Positions 2,091 to 24,992 of a stretch of DNA of 26,066 bases are shown in pieces. The DNA is from a virus. The stretch covers positions 1 through 26,066 of IMG/VR virus record IMGVR_UViG_3300031992_000417. One strand, 5' to 3'. Each line of letters starts with the position of its first letter. Within the stretch, counting starts at the first letter, position 1. Position numbers and translations under genes: made by a program. The notes under the pieces were generated by a model. The model ran no database searches. It was not told where the DNA came from and saw nothing but the letters and a program-made list of their open reading frames with translations.

Positions 2091-3470
2091 TTGATTACAT
2101 TAAATAGTAAAGAGGAATTAACTATTCCGGTTATTAAGCGCATTGTAGAAAATCATTATGGAAAAGAACTACCACGATTATAGAAATTAGAAAGATATTA
2201 CAAGAATGATAATGATATTCATCGTCGTATAATGAGTGATAATACAAAACCAAATAACAAGACTGCCAACCCGTATGCCAGTTATATTACTGACACATTG
2301 GTTGGTTATTTTATGGGCGAACCAGTTAGTTATAATGCGGAAGATAAGAACTTATTACAAGATTTAAATATGATATTTGAATACAACGATGAAGCAGATG
2401 AGAATACTGAATTAGCAAAAGACGCCAGCATTTATGGTGTAGCATTTGAAGAGTTGTATTTCAGTGAAGACGACAAGATGATTAGGTTCAAGCGTTTAGA
2501 CCCAAAGGAAATTATTCCTATTTATGATAAGACAATTGAATAGAATTTAATCGCAGTAATTAGATATTATGAAGACTTTGATTATGTTGAGGAAAAGAAA
2601 AGTTTCGTTATTGAGATTATTGATGATGTTGAAGTAAATAGATACCGCACAGGTGAATTGTTTAATTCTTTTACTCTATTGGAAAATTATCCCCATTATT
2701 TTGGTATGGTGCCCGTCGCTATCTATGAGAATAACGAGGATTAGATGGGCGACTTTGAGAAGGTCATTGACCTAATTGATGCGTATGACAAGATGGAGAG
2801 CGATAGCCTAAATGATTTTGAATATTTTGTCGATGCTTATCTGGCTCTTTACGGATTTACCGCGGATAAAGATGACATAAAGCAAATGAAGGAAAATCGT
2901 GTGCTTTTGATGGATGAAGGCACAAGTGCTGAATGGCTTATCAAGAGTGAGAATGACGCAACGACCGAAAATATGAAGAACCGTTTAGACACTGATATTC
3001 ATAAATTCGCTAAATGCCCGAACCTCGCTGATAAAGAGTTCGCAAGCAATGCGTCTGGTGTTGCTATTAAGTTTAAGTTATTAGGCACTGAAAACCTCAC
3101 ATCTATTAAAGAGCGCAAATTCAAGAAAGGTTTACAATAGCGTTTAGAACTTATGAGTATGATAGGCGGATTATTAAATACTGGTTTTGATTGGCGTGGT
3201 ATTGAAATTATCTTTACTCGTAATATTCCAAGTAATGATATTGATATTGCCAATATGGTTAATACATTATCTGGCATTGTAAGTGACGAAACATTGCTCG
3301 CGCAAATTCCATTTGTAGAAGATGTTGAGGCAGAATTAGAACGCCTTAAAACGCAAAAAGAGGAAGATAAATTAAACAATCCATTCTTTGCTACTCCTGG
3401 TGTAAATTACGAAACAGCCGCGCAAGCAAAGGATAAAGAAGCGGAGGATGACAATAATGAATTGGACTGA
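2091..3470 (+). CDS. Portal protein (SPP1 gp6-like)
   Basis: TTG 2091 lies 9 nt after AAGGAGG (2075-2081). Motifs: ...LERYYKNDNDIHRR...KPNNKTANPYASYITDTLVGYFMGEPVSY..., ...GDFEKVIDLIDAYDKMESDSLNDFEYFVDAYL.... Four in-frame TAGs (2181, 2541, 2742, 3138). TGA stop at 3468. Confidence 0.9.
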
Positions 3471-3846
3471 AATTTTAATGAAAATTTTTGAGTTGTGTGT
3501 TATTCCTCTTCTTGGAATTTTAACTACTTATTTAGTCCAGTGGATTGCTGTAAAAAAAGAAGAAATTAAAGAACACACTCATAATGAAAAAGTAAATAAG
3601 TATTTAGATTTACTTGAAGGCACAATTTCAAATTGTGTCATCGCTACTAATTAGACTTATGTTGAAGCGTTAAAAAACTAGAATGCTTTTACTGCGGAAG
3701 CGCAAAAGCACGCTTTTGAGATGACTTATAAACAAGTTATGCTAATTCTTACTGATGAAGCAAAGTAGTATTTAACCGAAGCCGTTGGCGACCTTCAAGA
3801 ATACATTACCGCATAGATTGAGGCGCAGGTGAATTTAAATAAATGA
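3457..3846 (+). CDS. Membrane protein, LL-H-type holin-like (N-terminal TM helix plus helical tail)
   Basis: ATG 3457 lies 9 nt after GGAGG (3443-3447). ILMKIFELCVIPLLGILTTYLVQWIAV is a hydrophobic helix. The tail ...VIATN[TAG]TYVEALKN[TAG]NAFTAEAQKHAF...AQIEAQV resembles my recollection of LL-H holin family proteins. Four in-frame TAGs. The TGA at 3844 overlaps the next ATG. Confidence 0.55.
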
Positions 3847-6804: not shown

Positions 6805-7121
6805 TTAAACGAGATTTAATTCAACGCATTCGTGTCATCCCAACTGATGACGCGCAAGGCGGTTCAACAATTACAATTGAACCTTATGAGTTTATTAAGG
6901 CGCACGTATCTATTACTGCTACTGGTGAATAGATTACACAATATGGTATTACTACATAGAAATTAATTAATGTAGTTACTGATATAAAATTAGATGAATA
7001 TATTCATACCCGCTATGTTTTTAATGGCGATAAATATAAACTTATGAGCCAAGTAAAACGCGGTCGTGAATGGTTCAGCGTGATGATGGAAGTTATTGAA
7101 GAGGAGGCTGAACCGGTATGA
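6801..7121 (+). CDS. Head closure / head-tail adaptor protein (SPP1 gp16-like by position and size)
   Basis: ATGA overlap at 6801-6804. 106 codons with two in-frame TAGs (6930, 6957). It lies between the connector and later head-tail joining genes. Its TGA overlaps the next ATG. Confidence 0.7.
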
Positions 7122-7450
7122 TGAAGTTTGATAAAGACACCAATGTTATCACAATGATTGCGAAAGATACTGGGGATTTTATCATTAATGTAGAGAATTA
7201 TAAATTGGATGAGGGCGACGAGGTTTATTTTACTGTTAATGACAAATTAGAGAAACCCACCGCACTTATCTCAAAGAAAGTCACTGTATTTAATGAAGAT
7301 AACACCGCAATTATCCGCTTAACTTCCACGGATACTAATTTACAACCTGGGACTTATTACTATGATATCCAAATCAATACTGCGGATGGGCGTGTTGATA
7401 CTGTTTTAGGTCCCGCTAAATTTAAAATTTTAGGAGGCGTGAAATTCTAA
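7118..7450 (+). CDS. Small Ig-like beta-sandwich protein (BppU_N-like pattern)
   Basis: An uninterrupted 110-aa ORF. ...[24 protein letters not shown]...[29 protein letters not shown]... resembles the N-terminal Ig-like domain of baseplate or fibre anchor proteins. TAATG overlap with the fibre gene. Confidence 0.7.
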
Positions 7451-9576
7451 TGAGTGAAGAAAAAAAAGTATTAGATACTGAAATTGTTGTATCTATGTCT
7501 AACGCCACTTATAAAGGTGAAGTAGGACCACAAGGACCCAAGGGAGAACCAGGAGATAGCGCTTATGACATTGCTGTTAAGAACGGGTTTGAAGGCACAG
7601 AAGCAGAATGGCTTGCCTCTTTACATATTGATGGAGATTGGGAAGGACAAATCGGTTCTGCTGGTAAAAGCGCTTATGAAATCGCAGTTGATAATGGATT
7701 TGTAGGCACTGAAATAGAATGGTTAGCGAGCCTTAAAGGTATTAAGGGTGATACCGGCGCAACCGGACCGAAAGGCGATAAAGGCGACACCGGGGAAACT
7801 GGGCCACAAGGACCAAAAGGCGATAAAGGTGATACTGGCGCAACTGGACCGAAGGGTGATACTGGACCTGCGGGGCAAAATGGCGCTACACCTGTAAAAG
7901 GTGTTGATTATTTCACCGCACAAGATATTAATGATTTTATTGCGTAGGTCCCACAACCAGATTTAACTAAATATAATAAAGATATTTTTCTTAATAATGA
8001 TGAAACATTAACAGATGAAATTTATAACATACTTTATACTTGGAATACCGCGCAAACTGATTTCCGTTTAGGTTATATCCCAGGGTATAATTTATATTTC
8101 GAGAACCGTTATGTATTTGCGGTAAAACGAAGTCAATCTTATGGCTTACCAGAATTATTTTATTGGGATTATGATACTTCAACTTCTTGTTATTATATGA
8201 TAGGGACATTCCCGTAGTATTCTTCTACTAAAGGGTTTTATTATCACTATATAGCCCCATCAACTTCGGCATTTAAATAGGCTATTTCTGCTAATGTAAT
8301 TCGTTTAAAAGACGAAGATAAATTGGCTTCAACCAATTTCTTGCCACAACAATTTGCTTATATTAAAGAAAATTATGCGACCAAAGCCTATGTAGAAGAG
8401 ATTGTGCGCGGTATTGAAACCGGTGCTTTAAAGCGTTCTGTCGTTTAGACTTTGCCAACAGAGGATATAGACGAAGATACTATCTATATGGTGCCAAAAA
8501 CAGGTAGCACCGGTGATGTTTATAATGAGTATTTGTATGTAAATAATACTTGGGAATTAATTGGTAGCACAGAAGTTGATTTAACTAATTATGCTACAAA
8601 GAGTTATGTTGATGGCGCAGTATTTAGTGGGGATTATAATGACTTAACGAATAAACCAACTATTCCATCTGCTTATACCTTACCCACCGCTACTACTTCC
8701 TCTCTTGGTGGTGTTAAGGTTGATGGCGAGACCATTACTATTGAGGATGGTGTGATTAGTGCGGCTAGCGGTGGTGGTGCCACTTATACTGCCGGTAATG
8801 GTATTAACATTGATGAAAATAATGTTATTAGTAATAATAATTCAACAATAAATTTATTAAACGCAGAAATGACGGCAATAAATACTACCAGTATTCACAC
8901 CAAAGACGAACTTATTGAATTATTAAAACAAGAAAAAATAATATATGTAAATGATGTTACTTGGTATGGCACTCAAATTTCAAGCACAGAATTAGGATTA
9001 CGGAATAATAGAATTAAATATGAAGATTCTACAAGTATGAGCGGACTAGTTAGCACATCCATTACGAGCACGATAACTTTATATTCCGAGCAATATTATT
9101 AGTTAGTGCTAAATAAAAAAGCGACTTTATCATCTAATGATAATAGCGCGCAATGTAGAACTTGGTCGTCTCCAATGGTATCAACACAATTACCACTTTG
9201 TGTTATTGGCTATAATACATATAATGGAAAATATGTTGGGAAAAATATTTAGGATTTAAATAATCGTGTTCCTGTGAATAATACGGCTGATGGCTCTTAT
9301 AAACTTACATCAACTGTTACTTCTGGTTCCGCTACTTATGCTTGGGTTGAAGATAGTTCCGGTTCAAGTTTTAGTGGCGATTATAATGATTTAACTAATA
9401 AACCAACTTTATTTAGTGGAAATTATAATGACTTAACTAATAAACCTACAATCCCAACTGGGGAAACTTTGCCAACGGCACCAGCGGGGGATGGAACTTA
9501 TTTATTGAAAGTTTCTGTTTCTTCTGGAACTCCAACTTATTCTTGGGAAAGCGTTGTAATAGGAGGTAGTTATTGA
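7450..9576 (+). CDS. Collagen-like fibre protein (708 aa)
   Basis: Track ORFs 7450-7947, 8452-9102 and 9274-9576 share one frame, and the gaps between them are open except for TAG (6 in total). It has Gly-X-Y tracts, a duplicated SAY(D/E)IAV.NGF.GTE.EWLASL motif, [33 protein letters not shown] and three SG(D/N)YNDLTNKPT motifs. All of these are typical phage fibre motifs. TGA stop. Confidence 0.85.
7738..7884 (+). repeat. Collagen-like Gly-X-Y tract (17 consecutive triplets; a shorter 5-triplet tract lies at 7516-7560)
   Basis: [49 protein letters not shown] read directly. The underlying DNA is an imperfect tandem repeat. Confidence 0.92.
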
Positions 9577-9577
9577 T

Positions 9578-10486
9578 ATGAGTTATGCTTTAATTAATAC
9601 TAATGATTTAACTACTCTTGGTAATGCTATTCGTGCGAAAACTGGTGATAGTAATAATTTAAGTATTAGCGAAATGGCTACTGCTGTCAATGGAATTACA
9701 ACTGGTAGTGGTGGTTCTAATTCTCCGCCTAATCGTGGTATGACATTCGAACAAACTAGCGATGGTGAGGGAAACCCAGTTATAAATATAGATTTATATG
9801 GAGCATATCAATATCATTTAAGTTATTCATCAATCTCGGCTGTAAAACCAGTGGTTCTTTTAACAAATATTTGTAGTCTAATTGGAAGACAATATAAGGA
9901 AATTGGTTGGTATACAACAAACTACATTAATATTACTTTACACGATAATAGTATAGATACCATTCCAGCATATTTTTTAAAACACTAGTATACGCCAAGT
10001 ACTGATAATATTATTCATCTTAGTTTAGCAGATAATACGCAAATAAAAACGTTAGAAGAAAATTGTTTGGAGTATTGCGGTCAAATATAGTTACCAACTA
10101 ATTTTTTTGATAGTATAGAGGCAATAGACTCTTATGCTTTGAATTATGCTAATTTTTAGTCTTATAATAATGGTATATTGGAATTGCCTACTAGTTTGAC
10201 GCGTATTAATAGTTCGGCTTTTAATGGTATTAGGGGAATTACAACTTTGATTATCCATAGAGATAATTTGGCGTCGATTGGCTAGTATGCTTTTCGATAT
10301 AGTAAACTAACAACCGTATATTTTATTGGTAATCGCGAGCAAGGTATAACGATAAATAGTCAAGCCTTTTCGAATACATCTGACCTTACTGATATTTATG
10401 TGCCTTGGAGCGAAGGCGATGTTGCTAATGCCCCTTGGGGTGCTACTAATGCGACTATCCATTATAATTGGACGCCGAGTGAATAA
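9578..10486 (+). CDS. Leucine-rich-repeat (BspA-type) fibre or receptor-binding protein
   Basis: The ATG lies 1 nt after the fibre TGA. N-terminus MSYALINTNDLTTLGNAIRAKTG..., then LRR units (...IDSYALNYANF..LELPTSLTRINSSAFNG...LASIG[TAG]YAFRYSKLTTVYF...INSQAFSNTSDLTDIYVPW...APWGATNATIHY). Four in-frame TAGs. TAA stop. Confidence 0.8.
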
Positions 10487-11200: not shown

Positions 11201-11383
11201 ATGGCATTTTTAAATAATAAAATGACCGCCTATACTGCCCCAGATGGGTTGGTTTATGATTATGCGGTAGCCCGTGAAGATGGCGAACACTTATATGTAA
11301 AGTATTTATACTTAACTAAATTTGATAATATCAATAATTATGTATTGGTGGATGACCCATATGATACAAAAGATAAAAACTGA
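11201..11383 (+). CDS. Hypothetical small protein (60 aa)
   Basis: AAGGAGG at 11184-11190 precedes ATG 11201. Uninterrupted, TGA stop. No family recognised. Confidence 0.55.
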   Translation: MAFLNNKMTAYTAPDGLVYDYAVAREDGEHLYVKYLYLTKFDNINNYVLVDDPYDTKDKN

Positions 11384-11774
11384 TTTATGTAATTTAGTGC
11401 GTTCGCTTGGCTATAATATCACAGATAATGGGGCTTATGTAGAAAATTTTCCTTGGCTGATGTTAAGGGTAAGTAGCAATCACAATTACCGCACGACAAC
11501 TACAATAGAAAATGATTTAACACTTATTATTGATATTTTTAGTATTTATAAAGGTGAAAAAGAAATACTCGATATTGTTAGCAATATCACTAATCATATT
11601 TGGGAATTAAAAGAAAACAATCCAAATATTATTTATATTAATCAAAGAGATTTAAAGATTATTGATGATAAAGCAACCGGTCCCGTTAAAAAGCACGGGA
11701 TTGTTTATTATACATTTTCACTATCTTCTTCTATTGGAGAGGAGGACAACACAGATGATACAACCGGGAATTGA
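11361..11774 (+). CDS. Putative tail terminator / tail-completion protein (assigned by position)
   Basis: The frame is open from 11322. I prefer ATG 11361 because GGTGGA lies 8 nt upstream. The gene lies between the gp10-like gene and the major tail gene. No TAG. TGA stop overlaps the next gene. Confidence 0.6.
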   Translation: MIQKIKTDLCNLVRSLGYNITDNGAYVENFPWLMLRVSSNHNYRTTTTIENDLTLIIDIFSIYKGEKEILDIVSNITNHIWELKENNPNIIYINQRDLKIIDDKATGPVKKHGIVYYTFSLSSSIGEEDNTDDTTGN

Positions 11775-12138
11775 TGTTGTTGTAATGATTGATAATAAAC
11801 CAGTAGCAGGACAAACTAATGCGAAATTAAATAGAATGATGAGCGCTATTGAGATTACGAATAAAGTTACTGGTGATTGGAAAGAATATATAGCAGGATT
11901 GCGGAATTGGAAAATTCAGTGCGATGGTTTATATGTGGTAGATGATGAAAGTTTAAATTCATTAGAAGATGCTTTTATGAATAACACAGAAATAGAAGTA
12001 AAATTATCTCTAAATAATAAGAACTATTTTGGTCGGGCTTTGATAATTGACTATCCCTTAAACTCAAATTATAATGCGTAGTTCAAGTATAATTTAACAT
12101 TATTAGGAAATGGAGCATTATCAATTGTTAATAACTGA
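11755..12138 (+). CDS. Major tail (tube) protein, TP901-1/phi13-like small MTP
   Basis: GGAGAGGAGG precedes ATG 11755. ...VAGQTNAKLNRMMSAIEITNKVTGDWKEYIAGLRNWKIQCDGLYVVDDESLNSLEDAFMNNTEIEVKL...GRALIIDYPLNSNYNA[TAG]FKYNLTLLGNGAL fits the siphovirus tube-protein pattern. One in-frame TAG (12079). TGA stop. Confidence 0.78.
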
Positions 12139-12415
12139 ACGCCCGCAGGTAGAGATAGATAAGTGGTATGCTATCGCAATAGGAGAAATAGGCATACCAC
12201 CTATTGATTTCTATACTATGACAGTGGAAGAATTAGAATTAGCATATAAGGGTTATCAGTAGAGGTTAGAAGATTAGACTAATTTGTTCTTATTAGCATT
12301 AATTAGAAGCAAAAGCGATAATAAATATGAACTTTTTCATATAACAGAAGATTTGGGATATAATATAGGTAGTTTAGAAGAACGCCAACAAGTATTCCAA
12401 AAATTAAATCTATAA
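12110..12415 (+). CDS. Small helical protein in the tail-chaperone / tape-measure slot (101 aa)
   Basis: This is the first ATG after an in-frame TAA at 12095, and it overlaps the MTP 3' end in the +1 frame. ...IGIPPIDFYTMTVEELELAYKGY[TAG]QRLED... resembles the 'P.eFw.mT..E' motif of small proteins encoded beside tape-measure genes. Two in-frame TAGs. TAA stop. The RBS is weak. Confidence 0.5.
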
Positions 12416-12428
12416 GGGGTTATATAAA

Positions 12429-12623
12429 ATGGATTTAATAAATCAACAAATTTAGACACTAATGGATAATTAGAGTTAGGTTAGTATTAGTTAGCCACCA
12501 CAAGACCAAACTCCACAAATGGTTTTACAAAATAGTAATGCTAATAATGAGATGACCGAAGAACAAATTGCTCGTGTCGCTGGACGCGGGATTGATAGAG
12601 AAGGAGGTAATTATTAGTGCTAA
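12429..12623 (+). CDS. Gln-rich microprotein (64 aa) with 5 in-frame TAGs
   Basis: GGGG lies 10 nt upstream of ATG 12429. MDLINQQI[TAG]TLMDN[TAG]S[TAG]VSIS[TAG]PPQDQTPQMVLQNSNANNEMTEEQIARVAGRGIDREGGNY[TAG]C. The TAA at 12621 overlaps the start of the giant ORF. Confidence 0.42.
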
Positions 12624-15600
12624 TTAATGGTGTTGATATTTCAAATTTAGGTATTAAATTATATGATAGAGTATTAAATTCTAATGAGATTAATACTATT
12701 GATGATTGGTTAGATGGAGATATCCAACCAACTAATATTAGACAACAAGTTAAATTTAGAAATATCAAATTAAGTTTTTTATTTTTGAGTAATAATGAAG
12801 AAGACGCATTTTATCGTATTAGTCAATTAACAGCAATGCTGAAACAAGCAACAATTGTATTTGATGATATTAATTTAGAGTTTAATGTAAGCATTACTGG
12901 GACTGCTAATACTCAACGATTAAAAAATGGTAATTTTATCGTTTCTTATAATCTTCATAGCGATTGTGGTAAAGGGCCTCGTGAGGTTTATACAACAAAT
13001 GCCAATCTTACCAGTGCTTTTAATTTAAATGTAATTTATTATAAGAACTCTACTGAATTATTAGCAAGTGAAACAGTTGTAATTAGGGCTTCAAGTTTTA
13101 CAGGTGTTAATGACAGCCCAGCGAGTATTGGCATAGATGTAAATAAGTATTTAACAGATTACTATAACACAGGAGTAATTACCAATTTAAATGGATTAGA
13201 ATTAACTTATAGTAATTTGGCTTATGTGGGGACAGTTATTATTAACTATTCGCCAATTCAATATAATTTAACTATTGACTATATGATGGATGATGGAGAA
13301 GGATAGTTTATTGATGACACCGAAGAAACTATTGCTTTTACATATCAACAGTTATAGTCTATTTAGACTATTGGTTAGTTAATTCAGCCACAAGCAAATC
13401 AACCAATAGGATATAAAACTAATATTATATTTACGGGAGCATTAACCGTAGAAAATATTTTAGCGCAAAGCCCAATTAAAGTTTTATATCAAAAAATAAC
13501 AAATCCAGCGCAAAAGACTATTGAAGTCAAATACTACGATGAGGCAGATAATGGCAATTGGCGTTTATTAAATACTGTTAATGTCGTAGTAAATGAAACT
13601 GAAATTTATGATGGTTCAGTCCTTGGTGATATTATTGATGTATCCGCAGAGAGACCAGATGAGCGTTATTATAACAATGGTTATATAGTAGACAATGATG
13701 CTAATAATTTAATTGTATTTGAAGAATTAGATTTAAGTTATAGTGTTAGATACCCACGAATTGAAAAAACAATTTGGGTAGAATATTATGCTGGCACTTA
13801 CCCAGGCTGGTATAGAATGCTTATTTCTTCTTTAACAGTAAAGTATAAAGATAGTTATAGCACCGATTTTGATTTATCTCAATTAGGTCTTAATTTAAAT
13901 AGATGTAAAACAAAAGATTATGAGGAAGGCAGAGTATTTAATTCAGGCAGTTTAGGAACCTATGATGATGTTGTCACTACTGGAATTATTCAGGTTTATT
14001 ATGTGCCAATAGATTATGAAATTGTAGTGAATTTTTAGACTGATGATGACCCTACAATTAATCAACAGACTTTTACAGTTAATATTTTAGATTTTGTTGG
14101 CTCTCCCTCATTAAATGATATTATCCCTATTAGTGAGTATCGTCCAGAGGGTTATTAGTTAGATGTTGAAAAAAGTTATAATGGAAAATTAGAGTTAGAT
14201 GAATTAATAGCATCTTCTCCTATTACTATTACATTTACTGAAATTGAAGCAGACCAAACTAAAAATATTATTATTCGTTATAAACAAGAATTAGCAAGCA
14301 CTTTTTCTACACTTAATACAAGTCTTATTAGTATTAATAAAAGTGATTGTGTTGGTGGCGTGCGTTTAAAGAATATAATTAATTTAGATATGTATAAACC
14401 AACTTATTATGAAAGTGGTATTGTTGATATGTATAGCGATACTGCGTTGGTTGAATTTGATGATTTATAGAGTTCTTATGATATTCTTTATATGGCATCT
14501 TATTATTCTACTCCCGTAAGGTATTATACAGATGATGTTGATGATATGAACTGGATAGGTAGCGCTTCTATATCTTATCGTATTATTGATTTTGAGACCA
14601 CCACAACCTTATTTGATTTAGGTTTAGATTTAAATATGTTTAAACCATCTTATGGCGATAATGGTGTCTGCCAATATAATGGTCCAGTAAATTTCTTGTC
14701 ATTAAGAGAATTATTTAGTATTAATATTATATATGATACAATTGAAGAACCAGAAGGCGATGACGGTATTGATTACCCACATAGGTTCTTATTTACTTGG
14801 GCCAATGATTTTGGTAGTTTTGAAAGCGTATATCCAAATTTAGATTTTAGACATTCATATATTAATACTGGTTTTACTTGCGATGATATGGCACGCGTTA
14901 CAATTACAATGGAATGTGACAAAGTTGATAGAAATACACCATTCCACGATATCAATGGTCCTTATGGCTACTTATTTGGTAGTGATGGTGGCGTTACTGG
15001 CGCTTTTTATATGCGTTTTAATAACCAAACAACTCATCACGCAGGTGAATTAACGGGTGTTAATACTTATGAAGCATAGGCTGGTTATCATTCATCTGTA
15101 TTAACCTTAACTGAATAGGATGCTGTTGGTTTTAGTGCCAATACCGGTATTTATGCGTCAGCCCAAGAGGGTTATAGTAATGCGACATTTACTTATACAA
15201 ATCCATTAGCGGTAGAGGGTTTCCCATATAATAGAATTGTATATCCTATTTATTTATTTGCTAATAATAATGGCGGACGATACGAATATGGTATTGGTGG
15301 CATTGGTATTTATGGTTGCCGTATTTATTATAACAATGTGCTGGTTCGTGATTTTATTCCAGTCCAAGAGTATGATAAGATTGGTGATTTGGTCGCCCCA
15401 AGCAATTGTTTATATGATAAAGTTAGCAAGACATTTTTTGAAGATGCTAGTGGCAATAACGGTTTTAATATAAAAGATGATGACCGTTATGTAGATACAA
15501 ACCCAGCCCATAAAATTGGATTTTGTTATGTAAATTATTATCAAAATAATTTAAGATTTAAGACAGTCAAATATTTCTTCCGTGGGGATGATTTTACTGA

Positions 15601-18600
15601 TGGCAAGACCTATGACCCATTTGAAGAATGGGAAATAGAAGATAATCAGCCAATGTTCTATAAGCCAGGCGTAATTACTGATATAGGGAATATCAATTTT
15701 ACATTTAATGGATTAAATGGTTAGGTCTTTAATGTTCTTTATGAAGAAGACGAAAATAACATTGTCGTAAATTATTATCGTGATGATAATGATGGCGGAG
15801 ACCCCGTTTTATTACATAGCGATACAATAACATTATCACAGCGCGACTTTTATTAGGTTCCTACTTTTGGTGATATTGTTAGATTAAATAAATATAAACC
15901 AGCAGGTTATAAAACTGATTATGAGTTCCCTGAAATGAAGGTGTCATTAGCCAGAGTATTAGCGCACGCGCCATATACAATTACTTATACGCCTGAAACG
16001 GAACCATTAGAAGATTATACAACAACTATCAAATATATTAAAAAAGTTTATGGCATTAGAACTTATGAAACCATTGCGGAAGATATTTTACATTTTGATT
16101 AGACAGATTTTAGAGATGGCGAATATATTGATTTTTACATTGAAAAAAATAAATATAAACCAGAGCGTTTCTATGTAGATGGAGAATATTATCAATGGTA
16201 TGAGATGGATGAAAAATTAAATAGCCCAAGTGATTTAAAACCAATCTATACAGTGGTTTATGATTGCGCGCGCCAGTATATTGATGTAAATTACTATACT
16301 GATGAATGGGACGAAGAGAACTTAATTGCTTCTACCACTTGGTCTTATCAATTAGATGAGTTTGACCCAGAGTATCCATTCTATATTGTTGATTAGTTGC
16401 CAAATACTTATATCAATAAATATCGTCCAAGAAATTGTGATGGAGGACAATTACAAAATAGTGATGTAGCATATACTTTTTATACTCTCGCTGATTTAGA
16501 AGAAATCGCAATTGTATATGAAAGTATTAGCGAACCAAATGACCCAAATGAAGCATATTATGAAAAGAAAGTTTTATGTTTTGGTGATTTATGTAATAAA
16601 ATTTATCCAAGTATAAAAGATATCAATTTGGGTATATAGAGAGGTGTTTTACCTCATCCATTACAAGTGCCATATATTGATTTAGGCTATAAACCAAAAG
16701 AAATTGGGCGTTTAAGAGTTGAATTAACTGGCACTGCTAAACCAATTGGTGTTATAGCCCCAACAAGCCCATATTCTAATTTAGATACGGGATTTTGCGG
16801 GTTATTTGGATATCGTGGAGCACCAAATGATTTCATCGCTATTGCGAATACAAGTTATAGTGAAACTAAATTACCAGATACAATAGCCAGCCCATATATA
16901 TCAGTGAATGAGGAATTTGGAATAGATACATTGAAACCTGTATGGTCCAAAGGTGAATTTTATATTCAACCTCGTGTTCCTAGCACAGAGGGGGCATTTT
17001 GGATTTGGGATTACAGCGGTCCTTCAAGTATCGATGGTTAGAAATATATTGATAATGTAATGACAAGAAATAGAATGCCGCCTAATGATGTTTATTATAT
17101 CAAACCAGGTATGGTAGCCAGTTTTAGAAGAGGGTTACCTTTTGATGTTGATAATGATTATAATACAATATCAGCATTTAAAGAAAATAAATTTACTAAA
17201 ACCTATACTTGGGAAGGCGTGCCTGATAAAGAAACAGATGGATATATGTAGGTTAATAGTGATAGATTACTGTCCCAAGGGCTACAATCATTTGATGAAA
17301 CAGAAAGATATGATAATTAGGACGGCACCTGGGTTGGAGATTATGCTATTGCTAACCCATTTACAGTAGTATTAGATGCTTATAATAATTATTGTAGTAT
17401 TTGGAATTATCACGATAGCAATTATCCATTTATATGGAAATTTGAAAATACTGATAATTCAATTTGGGAAGATATAGAGAGACCAAAAGGGTCTTTATCT
17501 TTATTTACTACAACAAATCCATATTCAGGAAAACCCAATATATTAGATGACTACTATTGGTCTTACCCTTCTATGACAGCATTATAGGGCGGTATGACTA
17601 TGAGGTTTTAGCAAACTGTTTTAGGTTTAAACCCATACGATGCTAATAGTTGGAAAACAAAAGCAAATGGTGAAGATGAAATAGGTTATGGTTATATTAA
17701 AACTACTGTTAGAACAAAAAAGAAAAATCCTGACACTGGCAAATGGGAGAAAGTTGAAACTGAAATATCAAGAAATGTTATGTGGGCTGACTGGGTATTC
17801 CCAACATTCCCTTGGTTAGCGGGGGCTGCTATTTATAGTTTAAAAATCTATGATAGAGATAAATTAGTGCGTGATTTAATCCCAGTAGGTAAGGGCGATA
17901 AGATATATGATTATATAATGCCAGAAAATGGTTTATTTGACCTTATTACTGAAATTTTCTTTGGAGATAGCAACCCAGGTAAAGCAACATAGCGTTTAAA
18001 TACGGTTAGTAGTGAAGAATTTACTTATACACCATTCTCATTATATGCTATTCCAGATTTTAATATTTATGGTAAAATTACTACAAATTATTATGATTAT
18101 GATAATTCATTTATTGAAAATAAATTTGTAGATGTCCCGATGTGGTTTTGCGGGCGTAATACAACCATTGAAGAAATACTTGAATGGAATGATTATAAAC
18201 CTGATGATTACCACTTGGATGGATGGATTGATGTTGATTAGGACTGGTCTTGGTTAGGCGATAAAATGAACCTCGCTCAAATTTATGAAATGGGTTCAAT
18301 TAATGTTTATTACCGTCTTCGCACATTTACTAAAACAGTTGTATATTATCGTGATAATGTCCGTATTGGCAGTAGAGATATAATGTATTCATTAGAAGAT
18401 ATCCAAAACGCTCATAATTTAGCAGATTTAGGTATCAATGTAGATTTATATTATAACTCACAATTTAAACACGGTCGTGTTGTTTATAACGAACAAATCA
18501 TCGCACAAGATGATATTGAAGCATTTATTAATGCTCCAAGTCCAATAGTGGTATATGATAAATTAACACAAGAAGAAGCACCTAATCTTTTATATGTTGA

Positions 18601-21600
18601 ATATTATAGAGGCGGGGCTTACGATGACGGACTTATTACATTAGATGAAAATGATAGTAATTATTTAGATTGTGATTTAACCGCAAGGGTTCTTAATCCA
18701 AATGGAGCAATTAAATATTATAATCATTATCATCAAGCGCTTTATGAAGATGAAGACTTTGGCGAATTTATCCCATATCAAGTCAAAGTTTTAGATAAAT
18801 ACGCGGGTTTACACGCTGGTCCTGCTCGTAAATATAAAACTCTCGCAATGATTATATAGCGCGATACTTATACAATTATTCAAGAGCGTAATGGCTGGGG
18901 TAGATTAAGAGAGTATCCTAATGCGTGGATTTTATTAAGCGCTACTGAACCTATTACTGGTCCTGGTTAGAACCCAGACTATGACAATGGTTATGGTAAG
19001 GCTACTACTGAAACCAACATTAATTTAAGGTCTTCACCAAGTTTAATGTATAATAACAATATTATTGGCGTTATTCCAACGGGCACAGAGGTTGATATTA
19101 TTGGTGAAATGACCCGCGTTAGTGGGAGAAACTGGTATCCAGTGCGTTATTTGACTTATCAAGGCTATGTTGTTGATGAATATATCAATATTACTAAATC
19201 ATATTTAGGAGAACAACTAGTTATTCCATTTGGTGAATATGTTGATATTACAAAAATGACAGTAGATAGATTATGGTGCTATGCCCCTGATTTTGAAAGT
19301 TGGATTAAAGCAGAAGATATTAGTTTTAATCAAGCAGGTAAATTATATAACGGATTAAAAATTGATGTTATTGATTTAGATGGAATTGATTTCAGTAATG
19401 TATCTTCATTAGAAGATATGGGTATTGATATTTAGAAGTATGTATTGCGTTTCCATAATGATAGTAATTATAGTTATAGTGGCGACTATACATACAACGC
19501 ATTTAGTCAATTACATAATATTGATGTTGTATATCCAGAAACAATTTACAACTATTCTTGTATTTATTACCAAGATAATAAAGCAGAACAAAATAGATTA
19601 GGCGCATCTGCGTTTAGTTGCTCCATCAGTGATTGGAACCCAGATTGGGATACATTCATTGCTACCTCTTGGCAAACAGAAGAAGTTTATGGAGAAGCCG
19701 TGGCTAAAAATGGCACACAAACAACTGGTAATATTAATATCCGTAAAGAAAAAGATGTTAATAGTGAATTAGTTGGGACTGTTCCAATAGGCGAAACAGT
19801 GTCTATCACCGGTGAAAGTTCTGTGGTTGGTAGTTATACTTGGTATCCTGTTCTTTATGGAGAATACGCTGGATATATCCGCACTGTTAATTTAACTGTG
19901 GTTAGCGAATATGGTGGGACTATGGAAATTAATCCTCAATTATATCGTGATACAGTATTAACATTAACCTGGGATTATTTCGGTTTTGAACGCAACTTAT
20001 ATCGTCCTACTGGTTATGGTGAAGGTATTTACTTATGGAACCCTCGTTCTTGGGATAAAGACAATATTAAATTTAGTTTTGAAGAATTAATTAAATGTGG
20101 CACTCAATATGTTGTATATCCAATCTTTAACCCAGACACTTATAAGATTTGGGTATAGGGTAATTATTTAGGAAAATATGTATAGAGAAGTATTAACGAC
20201 CCATATTATGGGACCACATACTATCATATGTATTTAAATAATCCAGGTATTAAAATAGATTTAAGCGATGAAACACACGAATATAATTTATATAATACCG
20301 ACCATTATAGTATTTATGGTGCTGGTGAATGGCGTAATGATTTAGGCTATGGCGGGCACGAATATTCCGGTAATTATTTCTATATTAATAGTGGTGAAAA
20401 CGCATATTATAACACACGATTAGGTCCTATTGTATTTTCTCTTTCAAGCAATTATCGCTTTAATGGTATAAGTATGCCATATAAAACAATGTCTCCATCA
20501 AACGGGAATGTGCCAGACGCAATCCAAAATACTAAAAATGGAGATGTGTTGATTGGCGATGTATCGAATTATCGTTATAGCCCAACTGATATAGTAGGTA
20601 TTGGTAATGACTATGAAGGAAGAGAAAGATAGTATTACATTACAGGCAAATTAAGCCAATTACAAGATAATACAAATCTTATTGGTTATCATTATGATGT
20701 GCCTGATAACTCCACTGATTATGATTTACGCAATCAATGGTGTCGTGGTATTATTTATGAAGTTATTAGTTATTATGACTTTATGATGATACATTATTAT
20801 GTGCCAGTGCCAAAAGGTTTATGGTATCGTTATAATGGAGAAACATTAAGAATGCCTGATAATGGATTATTTGATTTACTTACGGGTGAATTTAAACAAG
20901 GATTTAGGGCGAGCAAAGACAGCGATTTAGTTCCTACTGGTTTTAGTGGCACATTGGGTGATGGCAAAGAACTTATTTTCTTACGCAATCAAAATATTAG
21001 TGATAATGCTTATGACTTATTTAATGGTTGGGAATATGAAACAACCGATGTGTCTATTATTAAACGGACAACTGAAAATACTATTGGATATCAATAGCCT
21101 GATGAATATAGTATTTAGATGCGTAATTTAACCGCTGGGCTTATCTTACCAATTGCTAAACAAACTAATGATAGTTAGAATTAGGTTGTTGGTTCTTGGG
21201 ATAAATCTTGTGATGAATGGATAAAACGCGATAAGTTAGAAACTGTCAGTGGATACAATAGTATTGTCGCAGAAGAAGCAACTTATAGTTTAGTGCCTGG
21301 AACTCTTTCAAATTTCTATGTATATAATGACCCATTAGCAGTAAGTCATATTGGAGAATAGAGTGATTATTCTTATGGCAATGCCCCTGGGGTTATTAAA
21401 GTATATTATGTATGTCCTACTCCCGTTGACGGAATGCTATTTGACGGAGCACATTGGATACCCAGATACTATACAAGTTCTGCTACAACTCCATTAAATA
21501 AGAACTATGTAATTACCAAAGATACCAATTATTACAAATTCCCAATCGCAGACAATGAATACCGTATAAATAGTTATTTATATGGTGAGCGCATCACAGT

Positions 21601-21688
21601 ATTGTATGTATGCCAGAACAACACTAACTGGGGCTATACTGGTTAGGGTTGGATTGAAATTGATGGCAATACCAGCGAAGTATTATAA
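12617..21688 (+). CDS. Giant tail protein (3,023 codons): Dit N-terminal domain fused to long arrays of adhesin-like repeats, three 'LVRDxIPV' modules and SH3b-like modules
   Basis: GTG 12617 lies 9 nt after AGGAGG (12602-12607). Fifteen track ORFs (12617 through 21646) all sit in frame 2. I translated every gap and found only TAG (33 in total) and no TAA/TGA until 21686. The N-terminus MLINGVDISNLGIKLYDRVL...FRNIKLSFLF...AFYRISQLTAMLKQATIVFDD fits distal tail protein (Sipho_tail) N-domains. Then come many ~70-90-aa units with (I/V)x(V/I)xYY strands, for example TIEVKYYDEADNG at 13517 and NIVVNYYRDDNDGG at 15758 (MucBP-like pattern). Recurrent modules lie at 15251-15454, 17825-17980 and 20747-20905. 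SH3b-like modules lie at 18776-18955, 19004-19192, 19721-19894 and 21509-21670. Confidence 0.85.
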
Positions 21689-21708: not shown

Positions 21709-22056
21709 ATGAATGAAAATTATTACCCAATTACATTTGATGGGGACAGTTTCATTATTAACAATAATGGGACTGCCCCAGCCCCTTGTAAGATTACAAT
21801 TGTCCCATAGGTAGATTTTGTAAATCTTACAATTGAGGGTTTAAGTGAAAAACCAATTAGTGTTTCACAAGTAAGAGCAAATGATACATTAATTATTGAC
21901 GGAGAGGAACGCACAATTACTATTAATGATAATACAGCATTTGATAGATATAATGGTTGGGAGTTCCCAAAAGTTTAGCCAGGATAGAATACGGTAAAAA
22001 TATTAAACGGCACACATATATAGATTTCAATAGAATTTAATATGAGGTATTTATAA
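21709..22056 (+). CDS. Distal tail protein, C-terminal domain only (115 aa)
   Basis: GGGGGA lies 8 nt upstream of ATG 21709. ...FIINNNGTAPAPCKITIVP...LTIEG....TLIIDGEERTITINDNTAFDRYNGWEFPKV[TAG]PG[TAG]NTVKI... matches the C-terminal 'i.N.Gt...P.i.i......l.iD......v...g.n....f..L.pG.N.i' pattern of siphovirus Dit proteins. Four in-frame TAGs. TAA stop overlaps the Tal ATG. Confidence 0.8.
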
Positions 22057-23174
22057 TGTTTAAAATATATAATAGTAGTCGTCGTTTTTTAACCATATTA
22101 GACACAGGGTTAAAGAATGTTTATACCACTGATAGTTTAGACACTGGTTGGAGAAGTTTATGTTTTTAGGTGCCGTGTAAAACCGAATATCTCCAATACA
22201 TAGAAGAAGAAAATTATATAGAAACCGAAGATTATAACTATATCATAAAAGAAATAAAAAGTGAAGATAATATTTTTTTAACAGTCTATTGCCAACCTGA
22301 TATTGATGATTTTGAAAGTCAGGTTCATCCATATTTTGATGTTAATCAATTAGGGTTAAAACAAGCCTATGAGTATTGTTTAAATGATACTGGTTGGGAA
22401 TTATCTTATCATAGTTCTAATTATACGAGATTACAGAATGAATATTAGGGTAGTAATAAATATAAAATTGAAATGATACGCAAAATGGCAAGTGATTTTA
22501 ACCAAGAGATATGGTTTGATACAAAAAATAAAATATTATATATTTATGATTGGTTAGGCAAGGACTTCGGGGCCTTTTATTCTAATGAGTTAAAATTAAA
22601 ACTATTAAAATAGTTTTCAAATACTTATGATTATGGAACAGTGGTATATCCTATCCCAAATAAAAAAATGAGTGGTAATATTTGGACTATTAATGATGGA
22701 AAAGATTATATTGAAAATTATGATTATACCACAAAACGCATTGTAAAATTTTATAAAGATGATAATGCTAAATATGCGGAATAGTTATTACGAGGAGCAT
22801 AGCAATATTTAAATGAAATTAGTGTGCCAAAAACTACTTATGAAATTGCTTTAACAGATATTGGCTCATCTGTTGCTCTTGGAGATAATATTGTTATTGT
22901 TGATAAAATTAAAAATATTAAAATTAAACAAAGAGTGGTAGAAATTATACGGTATCCATTAGAACCAGAAAAAAGCAAATTAATCATATCTAATTTACCA
23001 AGTAATTTTTATAAAATGTTTATAGCAGGTAACAGACAATTAGAAAAAGATATGACATTTGTGAAAGAAACAATAGAAACTAATGGAGATTTAATTAATT
23101 TGAATGATACGCATATTAACGACATTATAGATAAGTTAGACAAGGCTAATATTATTACTATTAATTTTGATTAA
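22056..23174 (+). CDS. Tail-associated protein Tal (Prophage_tail / TIGR01665 N-terminal domain, gp27-like); no obvious C-terminal enzymatic extension
   Basis: TAATG overlap with the upstream gene. ...SLCF[TAG]VPCKTEYLQYIEEENYIETEDYNYIIKEIKSEDN...LKQAYEYCLNDTGWEL..., ...AE[TAG]LLRGA[TAG]QYLNEISVPKTTYEIALTDIG... Five in-frame TAGs join track ORFs 22170-22448 and 22824-23174. TAA stop. Confidence 0.85.
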
Positions 23175-23575: not shown

Positions 23576-24076
23576 ATGGTTCTGGAAATTATTGATGTAA
23601 AGTATCGTGATATGTTTGGTATTAACCCTAAATATGAACGCATTATTGAAAATAAACTTAATGATGCGGACGGTTTTAACGCATTTAAGGTAATGGTGAA
23701 TACCGCATTAGAAAATCTTACAAAAGAAATTGAAGGCAAAGTGCGAATTGGTTTGATTGAGCCTCATATGTTTGGGAAATATTATGGATATAATAATGAC
23801 CCTCATAATTATCATCGTGATGTATTTGAAGGTTATGCTCCTCATCCTTATTCGGCAAAACAATTAAACCAGAAAATTGGCAATCTCTATGCCCCGGCCC
23901 GGCTCACTAAATATGTTAATAATGGACTAATGAGACGAGGAAAATATGGAGTAAAAAGTGAGACTTATAGTTATTATTTGCCTTATGATTTTTTCACGAC
24001 GAATGACCCCACGATTAAGTTTGTCCCTAATGATTGGGAGCGTGAAGGTATGAGACTTACATCTAATGATTTTTAA
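23576..24076 (+). CDS. Hypothetical protein (166 aa, TAG-free, His/Tyr-rich middle); no family recognised
   Basis: An uninterrupted ORF with the same 26-nt leader as 23337. It is followed by a 3' UTR and an intrinsic terminator. Confidence 0.78.
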   Translation: MVLEIIDVKYRDMFGINPKYERIIENKLNDADGFNAFKVMVNTALENLTKEIEGKVRIGLIEPHMFGKYYGYNNDPHNYHRDVFEGYAPHPYSAKQLNQKIGNLYAPARLTKYVNNGLMRRGKYGVKSETYSYYLPYDFFTTNDPTIKFVPNDWEREGMRLTSNDF

Positions 24077-24398: not shown

Positions 24399-24992
24399 AT
24401 GGAAGACAAATATGGCACACCCGCCATTAATTTGCCAGAAGAAGACGAAGAAGAAATTTGGATGCCGGCACCAGGCTATGAGGACCGCTATGAAATTTCA
24501 AGTTTTGGCAATTTAAAAAATAAAAAAACAGGATTATTACGAAAATTAGATAAAGACCATTTCGGGTATCCAGTCGTATGTTTAAGAAAATACGACCCTA
24601 TTATAAAGAAGTATAGAACTCATTCTGTTTATATCCATAGATTAGTATGTGAAGCGTTTAATGGACCACCTACTGCTGAAAATAATATCTGCGACCATAT
24701 AGACCGATGTATCGTGAATAATTATTATCTCAATCTTCGTTGGACCGACCACAGAGGAAATAAAATGAATAGTAAAACTTCTTCTGCTCGGCGCCCACAT
24801 ATTAAAATTAAAACTACTCCTATTGTTCTATTGGATATAAATGGGAATTTTATAGAACGATTTAATAGTATATTAGAAGCCCACGAAAAAACTGGTATTA
24901 GTATATAGTAGATATAGCATAATCTACGAGGGGCACGGGAACCTTTTAAAATCGGGTATTTTAAGACCGAAGCGGATTATTTTGACAAATAA
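24399..24992 (+). CDS. Free-standing HNH homing-type endonuclease (NUMOD4-like N-terminus, HNH_3 core, C-terminal IENR1/NUMOD1-like DNA-binding helix)
   Basis: AAGGAGG lies upstream of ATG 24399. YEISSFGNLKN (NUMOD4-like), HRLVCEAFNGPP...CDHIDRCIVNNYYLNLRWTDHRGN (HNH). With TAG as sense the ORF runs through TAG TAG ATA TAG (24906-24917) to ...FNSILEAHEKTGISI[TAG][TAG]I[TAG]HNLRGAREPFKIGYFKTEADYFDK and TAA at 24990. Confidence 0.82.

Follow-up and report, generated by a model that had tools for sequence, protein, structure and literature searches.

A Dit N-Domain Extended by a Giant, Putatively Adhesive Arm in a Small TAG-Recoded Phage Genome

A Single Giant Gene Behind the Tail Tube

We found that one gene dominates the gut phage genome contained in the window analyzed here (the whole stretch of 26,066 nt, IMG/VR record IMGVR_UViG_3300031992_000417). 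It is most probably one genuine gene in which TAG is read as Gln, and its product is probably a baseplate-anchored fusion of a distal tail protein (Dit) with an adhesin, that is, an extreme variant of the so-called evolved Dits. The genes of the tail region follow one another in the order tube, chaperone-like ORF, small ORF, giant, Dit-C, and Tal:

11755..12138 (start approximate), + strand, major tail tube protein (PF06199 Phage_tail_2, E=3.6e-17; phrog_1407)
12110..12415, + strand, chaperone-like ORF of 101 aa, matching the C-terminal half of 163–181-aa orthologues
12429..12623, + strand, 64-aa ORF overlapping the giant start with its stop, from a family of 39–68 aa found in all relatives
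12617..21688, + strand, giant ORF with TAG as Gln, conserved and collinear in the relatives L003, L005/L006, L008, and L013 (dN/dS 0.02–0.03)
21709..22056, + strand, gene of 115 aa for a Dit C-terminal (galectin-type) domain (PF22768 SPP1_Dit, E=7e-11; phrog_33 Dit, E=1e-18)
22056..23174, + strand, short Tal of 372 aa (PF06605 Prophage_tail, E=7e-28; PF18994)

Decoding and Conservation of the Giant Gene

The giant ORF consists of 3,023 sense codons and a TAA, with 33 in-frame TAG codons (the first at codon 230) and no TAA or TGA inside, an absence expected by chance at ~1e-81 given the base composition. It starts with GTG at 12617, 8 nt downstream of the SD sequence GAAGGAGG, and terminates at 21686–21688. 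Since the window carries a 127-nt terminal direct repeat, the genome amounts to 25,939 nt and the giant ORF takes up 35.0% of it; the code-15 ORF and its collinear relatives bear out the claim of an earlier note on this DNA that one 3,023-codon ORF fills 35% of a 25.9-kb genome. The predicted product has a mass of 347 kDa and a pI of 4.5, contains 9.1% Tyr and 3.8% Ala, and lacks any TM-like segment.

In-frame TAG codons occur in nearly all + strand genes, which all end with TAA or TGA, and their frequency in the giant ORF is matched by that in essential genes, e.g., those for TerL (10 TAG) and the portal. In aligned relatives, the residue most commonly found opposite a giant-ORF TAG is Gln (23 of 101, vs. 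a background of 2.3%), and the alignable TAG positions give 8 TAG-to-TAG pairings vs. 93 pairings of TAG with a sense residue. By its in-frame use and these alignments, TAG is a sense codon genome-wide in this phage and is read as Gln (code 15). ARAGORN detected zero tRNA genes in the window, hence no TAG suppressor tRNA is encoded there; code-15 phages commonly, although not universally, carry one.

The giant ORF is real and constrained. It is collinear in independent metagenome assemblies (L003, L005/L006, L008, and L013), which excludes a chimeric or collapsed assembly, and in some relatives it is called as one protein of 2,842–3,214 aa. The orthologous genes of relatives contain 18, 4, or 0 TAG codons, compared with 33 in the window, and these relatives exclude that the TAGs are true gene terminators. 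The module order recurs at 40–70% identity in assemblies that differ in sample and origin (JGI, ENA, and Logan), and in close pairs dN/dS is as low as given above, the differences being almost all synonymous. Comparison with relatives also locates cassette-like variability at aa 1400–1700, 2100–2400, and 2500–2800. Two apparent cases of separate genes were dismissed: the frame change in L008 is a 1-nt indel within a single repeat unit, while that in L009 coincides with a scaffold gap (junk sequence inside the gene).

A Dit Divided Between Two Genes

Along the giant polypeptide, the following parts were delimited:

12617..12991, + strand, Dit N-terminal ring-forming domain, aa 1 to ~125 (BLASTP, profile search, AF2/Foldseek)
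13007..14731, + strand, seven ~80-aa repeats, aa 131–705, beta-rich (repeat HMM 45–72 bits; no Pfam/PDB match)
14759..15466, + strand, large module A, aa ~715–950, a 'YINTG...LVRDFIPV...LYDKVSKTFF' domain, putatively lectin-like and receptor-binding
15728..16516, + strand, three repeats, aa 1038–1300 (repeat HMM)
16649..17986, + strand, large module B, aa ~1345–1790, of the module A family with a large internal insertion (end motif 105.9 bits)
18059..18556, + strand, two repeats, aa 1815–1980 (repeat HMM)
18995..19231, + strand, SH3b domain 1, aa 2127–2205 (Pfam SH3_3 E=1.9e-9, 38.0 bits; HMM 114 bits)
19316..19696, + strand, two more degenerate repeats, aa 2234–2360 (repeat HMM 20 and 40 bits)
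19709..19939, + strand, SH3b domain 2, aa 2365–2441 (Pfam SH3_3 E=6.5e-13, 49.1 bits; HMM)
20219..20911, + strand, large module C, aa ~2535–2765, of the module A family, in a variable region (end motif 70.5 bits)
20912..21685, + strand, C-terminal ~258 aa, including an unconfirmed fourth 'SH3b-like' stretch (Pfam, HMM, hhalign)

By sequence homology and by predicted fold, the first ~120 residues are a Dit N-domain, as the earlier note had proposed for the first ~125. In BLASTP, residues 1–118 align with residues 1–115 of the classical, ~240-aa Dit P0110 (36% identity, E=1e-22), and a profile search with the N-domain recovers ~230-aa Dits carrying PF22768 in the same chain. The AF2 model of the domain (pLDDT 85–90) has as its top Foldseek matches the Dits 4v96, 6v8i, and 2x8k (E 2.5e-5) of phages TP901-1, 80alpha, and SPP1, and against BFVD it finds 'Distal tail protein' (E 2e-9). 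None of the deposited phage genomes matches the N-terminal 229 aa of the giant.

The galectin-type C-domain (PF22768) was not found within the giant polypeptide. It is encoded by the next gene, which the earlier note had missed: this 115-aa ORF has its own SD (GGGGGA) and ATG after the TAA of the giant, is spanned entirely by PF22768, and aligns with residues 136–242 of P0110 (BLASTP E=2e-13). As read from these matches, the Dit has been divided in two at the linker between its domains. The same TAA-SD-ATG layout is present in L003 and L005, and in L013 a separate PF22768 ORF also follows the giant. A frameshift fusion of the giant with Dit-C, the frames of which overlap by 25 nt, was rejected because in each of three genomes Dit-C comes with an SD and an ATG of its own. 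In L011, the intermediate Dit-N fusion is followed by a 220-aa ORF whose similarity to Dit-C is not significant.

Repeats, Large Modules, and SH3b Domains

The repeats were found by windowed phmmer and an iterated HMM, whereas self-BLAST of the giant protein detected none. The HMM defines 14 copies of the ~80-aa unit, arranged 7+3+2+2 and scoring 20–79 bits, with a maximum of 5.6 bits in 50 shuffles, in agreement with the at least a dozen units of ~70–90 aa previously noticed. A model of repeat 1 shows a beta-hairpin with short helices (pLDDT ~80–88). The description of these units as MucBP-like is not supported: Pfam detects no MucBP (PF06458) in the giant at E≤1, the repeat profile has zero matches among PDB sequences, and hhalign with Flg_new_2 (InlB-B) repeats gives a probability of 0.2%, i.e., no relation. 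The sole hint comes from YwfG, which Foldseek matches weakly to a low-confidence model, as discussed below.

The three larger modules with a shared end motif, in turn, are supported by an HMM at coordinates matching those reported before. The end motifs lie at aa 882–946, 1724–1787, and 2703–2763 (nt 15260–15454, 17786–17977, and 20723–20905) and score 70–106 bits vs. ≤2.3 in the control. Module B begins with a motif read from the sequence as 'PYIDLGYKPKE' and varies among relatives at aa ~1400–1700. It had escaped notice that modules A–C belong to an unannotated domain family with at least 3,290 member proteins. Stand-alone homologues are located at tail-fiber/RBP positions among the distal tail genes of Firmicutes prophages, where they adjoin DUF6273 proteins and precede an XkdX/amidase cassette or an integrase. 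The structure model of the module A orthologue P0047 with its flanking repeat reached a pLDDT of 55 only, so that its weak Foldseek match to YwfG (E~2e-3, probability 0.57, TM <0.2) serves as a hint only. Superantigen and ubiquitin-like matches to this low-confidence model are likewise weak.

Of the four SH3b modules claimed earlier, those at 19004–19192 and 19721–19894 are confirmed, with best SH3_3 (PF08239) matches at aa 2134–2190 and 2372–2426 (Pfam gathering cutoff 27). Those at 18776–18955 and 21509–21670 were negative with Pfam at E≤1, with the SH3 HMM, and with hhalign against the confirmed copies; they are conserved segments. SH3b domain 1 falls in a gap in L003 and L005, and domain 2 is kept in L003, L005, and L008. 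When Pfam and PHROGs were run on ten overlapping pieces of the giant (table-15 translation), SH3_3, hit twice, was the only domain found. Sequence and profile searches of the PDB, made with the full-length protein and with profiles of the N-terminus and of the repeat, returned nothing useful, and ~70% of the giant (repeats, large modules, and C-terminus) is without an assignable fold.

A Tail Module Lacking a Recognizable Tape Measure

The giant follows the tube and chaperone-like genes and thus occupies the usual place of the tape measure (TMP) gene, a feature overlooked in the earlier note. Between tube and giant there are only the 101-aa and 64-aa ORFs and no TMP, and Tal comes after the Dit-C gene. 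Neither this genome nor the tail modules of nine related loci yielded a detectable tape-measure gene; the extended, split Dit-N and the absent TMP occur together in 10/10 loci examined. The classical-Dit relative L012, in contrast, has a TMP in a normal TMP-Dit-Tal layout. We found no published report of siphophages without a TMP, and a review presents the TMP-Dit-Tal triad as a conserved feature of all siphophages (PMC7291167).

We conjecture that the 64-aa ORF could act as a minimal tape measure. That this 39–68-aa family is the vestigial C-terminus of a TMP, as suggested by its visual likeness to the C-end of the L012 TMP, was rejected on HMM scores (−2.8 bits, with shuffles reaching 4.3).

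Proposed Architecture of the Baseplate

The ancestor presumably had a ring-forming Dit N-domain and a galectin-type C-domain in one chain. In this lineage, the N-domain is followed in its chain by beta-rich modules totaling ~2,900 residues, and the C-domain is encoded separately as the 115-aa protein. In the extension, the 14 repeats are probably spacers or a stalk, accompanied by the three large modules of ~200–450 aa and at least two putative cell-wall-binding SH3b domains. The N-domains may form a (presumably hexameric) ring between the tail tube and Tal, as in other Dits, each subunit projecting a flexible arm of ~347 kDa that would bind to glycans or peptidoglycan in the cell wall of a host that is Gram-positive and probably clostridial. 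A Firmicutes host is suggested by TerL, whose closest catalogued relatives belong to Clostridium and Bacillus phages. Such a modular, repetitive composition with large modules and SH3b domains fits an adhesin, in line with the very large modular adhesin envisaged earlier, with the binding function inferred. The RBP-position context of the module homologues, the cassette-like variability, and the InlB-B-type repeats that follow the N-domain in intermediates of 679–1,054 aa point the same way. As no other receptor-binding gene follows Tal in this genome, the giant could be the main baseplate adhesin, whose variable cassettes would set the host range. Yet a collagen-like fiber (7450–9576) and a BspA-type LRR protein (9578–10486) could also bind the host, and the giant is therefore perhaps not the primary receptor-binding protein.

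A bolder reading, to which we give little credence, is that a clade of ~20–26-kb Firmicutes phages abandoned the conventional TMP, and that Dit-anchored arms took over reach and host recognition from a tail reduced to a stub. Such a tail would consist of the terminator, a tube of a single ring or a few rings, the Dit-N ring, and the short Tal, its length being set at most by the 39–68-aa peptide, whose gene lies upstream of and overlaps the Dit gene. Six arms of up to ~350 kDa each might then replace the long tail.

Alternative Explanations

An assembly artifact, either a chimeric or a repeat-collapsed 9-kb ORF, is hardly credible. The gene is internally repetitive, the scaffold of L009 has a gap with junk inside the gene, and L008 needs a 1-nt correction, but the repeats are only ~20–30% identical at the protein level and give no off-diagonal BLAST matches, a divergence too great for repeat-driven misassembly; the module order recovered from JGI, ENA, and Logan samples and the nearly exclusive synonymous differences between close pairs also speak against it. 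We regard it as improbable, although less remote than a faulty assembly, that some TAGs are genuine or regulated stops yielding a short Dit-N and a ladder of truncated arms, with the full length rare or conditional on a late code switch. With 33 TAGs, suppression that is anything short of very efficient would truncate most chains, no suppressor tRNA was found in the window, and relatives differ in how many TAGs the giant gene contains (0 to 33); moreover, Borges et al. proposed that in hosts with the standard code, recoding postpones the expression of late genes (10.1101/2021.08.26.457843). Nevertheless, the pairing of TAG with Gln and other sense residues contradicts this scenario, purifying selection acts along the full length, which zero-TAG relatives share collinearly, and the equally TAG-rich TerL and portal genes imply that efficient TAG decoding must exist in late infection.

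There is also a slight chance that the N-domain is not a Dit but a tail-tube or other Hcp-fold protein, or that the giant functionally replaces the TMP. Dit-N, tube, terminator, and Hcp proteins share one fold, and tube proteins do appear in the Foldseek list (E~2e-3); yet a separate tube gene is present and the homology leads directly to classical Dits with PF22768 in the same chain. As to the TMP, position after the chaperone-like genes and failure to find a TMP favor replacement, but the giant has no TMP PHROG or Pfam match and is beta-rich and Tyr-rich, without a hydrophobic segment (maximum KD19 1.12 and zero windows >1.6, vs. 2.09 and 23 such windows in the L012 TMP). Furthermore, established Dit structures suggest that the extension would exit the ring where the peripheral galectin domain sits, outside the tube lumen. 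A single TAG-decoded Dit-adhesin fusion thus stays our preferred reading.

Relation to Known Systems and Implications

Classical Dits (SPP1 gp19.1 2x8k, TP901-1 4v96, 80alpha 6v8i, and p2 ORF15 2wzp) share with the giant the N-domain fold and sequence family, the locus just upstream of Tal (here with the Dit-C gene in between), and the presence there of the C-domain family PF22768. However, they are ~230–300 aa long, carry the N- and C-domains on one chain, and come after a TMP gene, exactly as in L012. Published evolved Dits, known from Lactobacillus phages J-1 and PL-1, lactococcal 936/Skunavirus, and S. thermophilus phages (Dieterle 2014/2017; Hayes 2018, via PMC7291167), have galectin C-domain loops into which one or two CBMs are inserted, all within a single chain (PMC7291167). 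As in these proteins, which are multicopy at the tail tip and serve on Gram-positive hosts, a Dit ring protein bears extra putative host-binding modules here, and the scale on which it does so lies, as the earlier note had suspected, beyond that of the evolved Dits described in the literature consulted. Unlike them, the giant adds ~2,900 aa and at least 20 modules directly after the N-domain. No BppA-type CBM was detected in it, and the separate C-domain measures only 115 aa, without CBM in galectin-domain loops. Because this domain is encoded by a separate downstream gene, the giant falls outside the published meaning of an evolved Dit.

Intermediate in size are the Dit-N fusions P0085, P0090, P0095, and P0101 (672–1,054 aa), with a homologous N-domain (E 1e-27 to 1e-34), a tail module without a detectable TMP, and a short Tal. 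They are 3–5 times shorter, and their Flg_new_2 (divergent InlB B-repeat) extensions are not detectably related to the repeats of the giant. YwfG of Lactococcus (7yl4–7yl6), a Gram-positive surface adhesin with an L-type lectin and MucBP, is the best, albeit weak, structural match of the module A and flanking repeat model. Its lectin-like beta-sandwich followed by small beta-grasp repeats would be comparable in kind to the module A region as modeled, with no sequence relationship to the giant.

Some 12 times as large as a classical Dit, the giant is by far the largest Dit derivative found, and its extension is appended after the ring domain with the galectin domain detached. If our interpretation holds, a Dit ring can directly anchor a complete, very long adhesin, and the abundant large-module family of gut Firmicutes prophages gains a first functional handle, useful for host prediction and receptor-binding protein engineering. 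The lack of a recognizable TMP in a tube-encoding clade would challenge the universality of the TMP-Dit-Tal triad and make tail-length determination testable in a minimal system. Were the stub-like tail real, it would represent a transition from siphovirus to 'podovirus-like' morphology made from siphovirus parts. The gene would also exemplify how standard-code gene calling conceals giant genes of this kind as short fragments. In public databases, the giant protein is present as dozens of 100–400-aa 'hypothetical protein' fragments.

Small TAG-recoded gut phage clades have been described, i.e., Topaz (22±3 kb) and Garnet and Amethyst (~34 kb) (10.1101/2021.08.26.457843); the parts of that source drawn on here mention neither a giant Dit gene nor TMP absence. 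Going by the published description, our phage resembles Topaz in its code 15, its 20–26-kb genome, and its heavily recoded structural genes, with Firmicutes hosts given for Topaz. The window itself has no integrase or suppressor tRNA, and the integrase carried by the relative L011 recalls the Topaz and Garnet prophages of that description.

Genetic code and integrity of the giant gene

The genome comprises 25,939 nt with a terminal direct repeat of 127 nt and a GC content of 33.5%. The giant ORF (12617-21688, + strand), which takes up 35.0% of it, starts with GTG at 12617, is preceded 8 nt upstream by a strong Shine-Dalgarno sequence (GAAGGAGG) and ends with TAA at 21686-21688. Its 3,023 codons include 33 TAG and neither TAA nor TGA, the absence of which has a probability of ~1e-81 at the base composition of the window. 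The product (347 kDa) is acidic (pI 4.5), contains 9.1% Tyr and lacks hydrophobic segments. Reading the window with code 15 (TAG as Gln) is justified, since in-frame TAG is present in almost all + strand genes, every gene terminates with TAA or TGA, and in a three-way orthologue alignment Gln is the residue most often opposite TAG (23 of 101 positions vs 2.3% background). TerL alone has 10 TAG; the genes without TAG are those for MCP, TerS and the terminator, 7118-7450, and 23576-24076, which encodes a 166-aa product without assigned family. No tRNA gene, suppressor tRNA included, was detected in the whole window. The recoding is not the novelty here because TAG-to-Gln reassignment has already been published for gut phage clades with small genomes (22-34 kb), among them clades infecting Firmicutes (Borges et al., 10.1101/2021.08.26.457843).

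The N-terminal 229 aa used as a query retrieved 46 homologues, all of them short fragments, which is what standard-code calling of recoded genes would produce; no deposited phage genome matched this query at E<=1e-3. Translated with TAG as sense, the relative contigs, which come from independent samples, carry orthologues of 2,943 codons from ATG (2,953 stop to stop; 18 TAG) in L003, about 2,870-2,934 codons (3-4 TAG) in L005 and L006, and at least 2,977 codons with 0 TAG in L008 when one single-base indel inside a repeat unit is allowed for. An exhaustive profile search additionally recovered single-protein relatives of 2,842-3,214 aa, one of which (L013) lies in a gene neighbourhood matching that of the window. 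The giant proteins are collinear among relatives at 40-70% identity, and close pairs differ almost only synonymously (dN/dS of 0.02 and 0.027). The earlier note proposed one real giant ORF and named two scenarios that would undo it, i.e., misassembly and several genes ending at genuine TAG terminators. Because the orthologues are collinear across independent contigs and dN/dS is low, misassembly is excluded, and so are TAG-ended multiple genes, given the long-ORF relatives that include the TAG-free one of L008. The 1-base frame shift of L008 (10967, GAA(A)GT; one contig) is either a sequencing or assembly indel or a true frameshift, while the frame change in L009 is an assembly artefact, as it is located at a run of N.

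The TAG count of the giant gene is graded across relatives (33, 18, 4 and 0 in the window, L003, L005 and L008; proteins P0065-P0071), and TAG is still a sense codon in other genes of all loci examined. Such a gradient within one phage family could serve to time or order code reassignment.

A split distal tail protein

The first ~125 aa of the giant protein are a Dit N-domain, as the earlier note had suggested. In an AlphaFold2 model built with the homologue alignment (pLDDT ~85-90 across residues 1-120), the top Foldseek ranks against PDB are Dits (TP901-1 4v96, monocin 9j1k, 80alpha 6v8i and SPP1 gp19.1 2x8k; also NF5, Bxb1 and p2; best E 2.5e-5), with generic tube proteins one to two orders of magnitude below; the BFVD match is a 'Distal tail protein' (E=2e-9). 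We found that the N-terminal profile search also recovers many proteins of ~226-243 aa, which Pfam identifies as classical Dits, their residues ~140-240 matching PF22768 (the SPP1_Dit C-terminal domain). One of them, P0110, aligns by residues 1-115 with residues 1-118 of the giant protein (36% identity, E=1e-22) and by residues 136-242 with the 115-aa product encoded directly downstream (36% identity, E=2e-13):

21709-22056, Dit-C gene, 115 aa, covered over its full length by PF22768 (E=7e-11) and also matching phrog_33 Dit

This gene has its own Shine-Dalgarno sequence and ATG downstream of the giant's TAA in three genomes (the window, L003 and L005), and in L013 the PF22768 ORF is called separately, directly after the giant gene. 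Since the two halves of P0110 align to two neighbouring genes, an ancestral two-domain Dit was split at the inter-domain linker; Dit-N gained an extension of ~2,900 aa, and Dit-C became a stand-alone protein. In the searchable literature, 'evolved Dits' have one or two CBMs inserted in galectin-domain loops (PMC7291167), whereas here the extension follows the N-domain and the C-domain is a separate gene. The giant is an extreme form of functionalised Dit.

Modules of the extension

Modules of the giant protein and the evidence for each
aa 1 to ~125, Dit N-domain (homology and fold)
aa 131-705, seven ~80-aa repeats (repeat HMM)
aa ~715-950, large module A (motif HMM)
aa 1038-1300, three repeats (repeat HMM)
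aa ~1345-1790, large module B, enlarged by a sizeable insertion (end motif)
aa 1815-1980, two repeats (repeat HMM)
aa 2127-2205, SH3b domain 1 (Pfam and HMM)
aa 2234-2360, two degenerate repeats (repeat HMM)
aa 2365-2441, SH3b domain 2 (Pfam and HMM)
aa ~2535-2765, large module C (end motif)
aa 2766-3023, C-terminus with no fold match (Pfam, HMM, hhalign)

An iterated HMM detects 14 copies of the ~80-aa repeat at 20-79 bits, 50 shuffles reaching at most 5.6. These repeats had been described as MucBP-like, a label that proved unsupported because they have no Pfam match and no relative among PDB sequences, and no relationship could be detected with the Flg_new_2/InlB-B repeats, which come after the homologous N-domain in intermediates of 672-1,054 aa. 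The three copies of a larger module were borne out: all share the start motif YI[DN]TG.. and the end motif IY.C.IY.N..LVRDFIPV...LYDKVS..F (70-106 bits vs at most 2.3 for the control). Among four proposed SH3b-like modules, two pass both Pfam (SH3_3 matched twice) and HMM, whereas the other two are unsupported though conserved in relatives. Variable cassettes among relatives cover aa ~1400-1700, 2100-2400 and 2500-2800; SH3b domain 1, within the second, is missing from L003 and L005. Sequence searches and two structure models left ~70% of the giant protein without an assignable fold.

The large module (YI[DN]TG...LVRDFIPV...LYDKVS..F) defines an unnamed family that matches no Pfam entry and counts at least 3,290 proteins, mostly tandem duplications of ~380-410 aa (members include P0060-P0063 and P0212-P0329; loci L014-L016). 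Stand-alone members are found among distal tail genes of Firmicutes prophages, flanked by DUF6273 proteins. In L014 and L015 they precede XkdX and, in L014, an amidase gene as well; the L016 member has a PhageMin_Tail tape-measure gene on its upstream side and an integrase on its downstream side. Receptor-binding proteins (RBPs) are typically encoded at such positions. No other RBP gene was found downstream of the short Tal (372 aa) of the window. The model of a module A orthologue was poor (pLDDT 55), and its best, weak Foldseek match was Lactococcus YwfG (E~2e-3, probability 0.57), followed by beta-grasp proteins. YwfG combines an L-type lectin with MucBP domains; the match fits, without proving, an architecture of a lectin-like sandwich and small repeats.

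From the few family matches, the homologues in RBP position and the lack of an RBP gene after Tal, we infer that the giant is a putative baseplate-anchored multivalent adhesin, a reading drawn from sequence, gene context and the two structure models. By analogy with established Dit rings, six copies of it would be expected. In each, the ~80-aa repeats may provide spacing, whereas binding would be the task of the three large modules and the SH3b domains. A Firmicute is the probable host, as the nearest catalogued TerL relatives are those of Clostridium and Bacillus phages (47-50% identity).

Gene order and the missing tape measure

The genes are ordered TerS, TerL, portal, holin-like, minor head protein, scaffold, MCP, adaptor, head closure, collagen-like fibre, BspA-LRR protein, Neck1, terminator, tube, a 101-aa chaperone-like ORF, a 64-aa ORF, giant, Dit-C, Tal, an unknown gene, HNH, an unknown gene and a DnaD-like gene. 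No TMP was found in the window (11340-12626 and 21709-23174 flank the giant), nor in the tail modules of nine extended-Dit-N loci (L001, L003, L005, L008, L009, L010, L011, L013 and L017). In all ten, the interval between the tube and Dit genes holds only a chaperone-like ORF of 79-181 aa (not called in L013) and then an ORF of 39-68 aa, represented in the window by:

12110-12415, chaperone-like ORF, 101 aa, matching the C-terminal half of 163-181-aa orthologues
12429-12623, 64-aa ORF of a conserved small-protein family, its stop overlapping the giant's GTG start

The long chaperone-like orthologues occur in L001, L003, L005, L008, L009 and L010; L011 has a 90-aa short form as in the window, and L017 a 79-aa ORF at the same position. 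Next comes the Dit-N fusion, for which complete genes encode 679-3,214 aa. Contigs that extend beyond it show an ORF of 115-220 aa, whose identity as Dit-C was confirmed for the window, L003, L005/L006 and L013, and then a Tal of the Prophage_tail family (339-372 aa; annotated as such in the window, L011 and L017). In contrast, L012, the relative with a classical Dit, encodes a typical TMP (at least 959 aa) upstream of it, and the Tal downstream measures at least 622 aa. Members of the small-ORF family end in ...NKIGLEVQRQGG in relatives; by eye this resembles the C-terminus of the L012 TMP, yet the similarity was not significant in an HMM test. A 'minimal tail' is our conjecture to account for the absence of TMP. 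No description of a siphophage without TMP was found in the searchable literature. Three points should surprise a specialist: the scale of the giant, the split Dit architecture and the clade-wide absence of TMP.

Other genes

The interval 7450-10486, between the head-closure and Neck1 genes, encodes a collagen-repeat fibre (708 aa) and a BspA-type LRR protein (302 aa), suggestive of appendages of the neck or collar with a possible further role in host binding; the fibre orthologue in L009 bears a Peptidase_G2 chaperone domain. No endolysin was recognized anywhere in the window, and a holin-like ORF (3448-3846; phrog_13712, E=8e-30) is located between the portal and minor-head genes. The HNH endonuclease gene (24399-24992; NUMOD4/HNH_3 type in relatives) is part of a short non-structural region, with TerS following it across the circular junction, a layout typical of HNH-assisted cos packaging.
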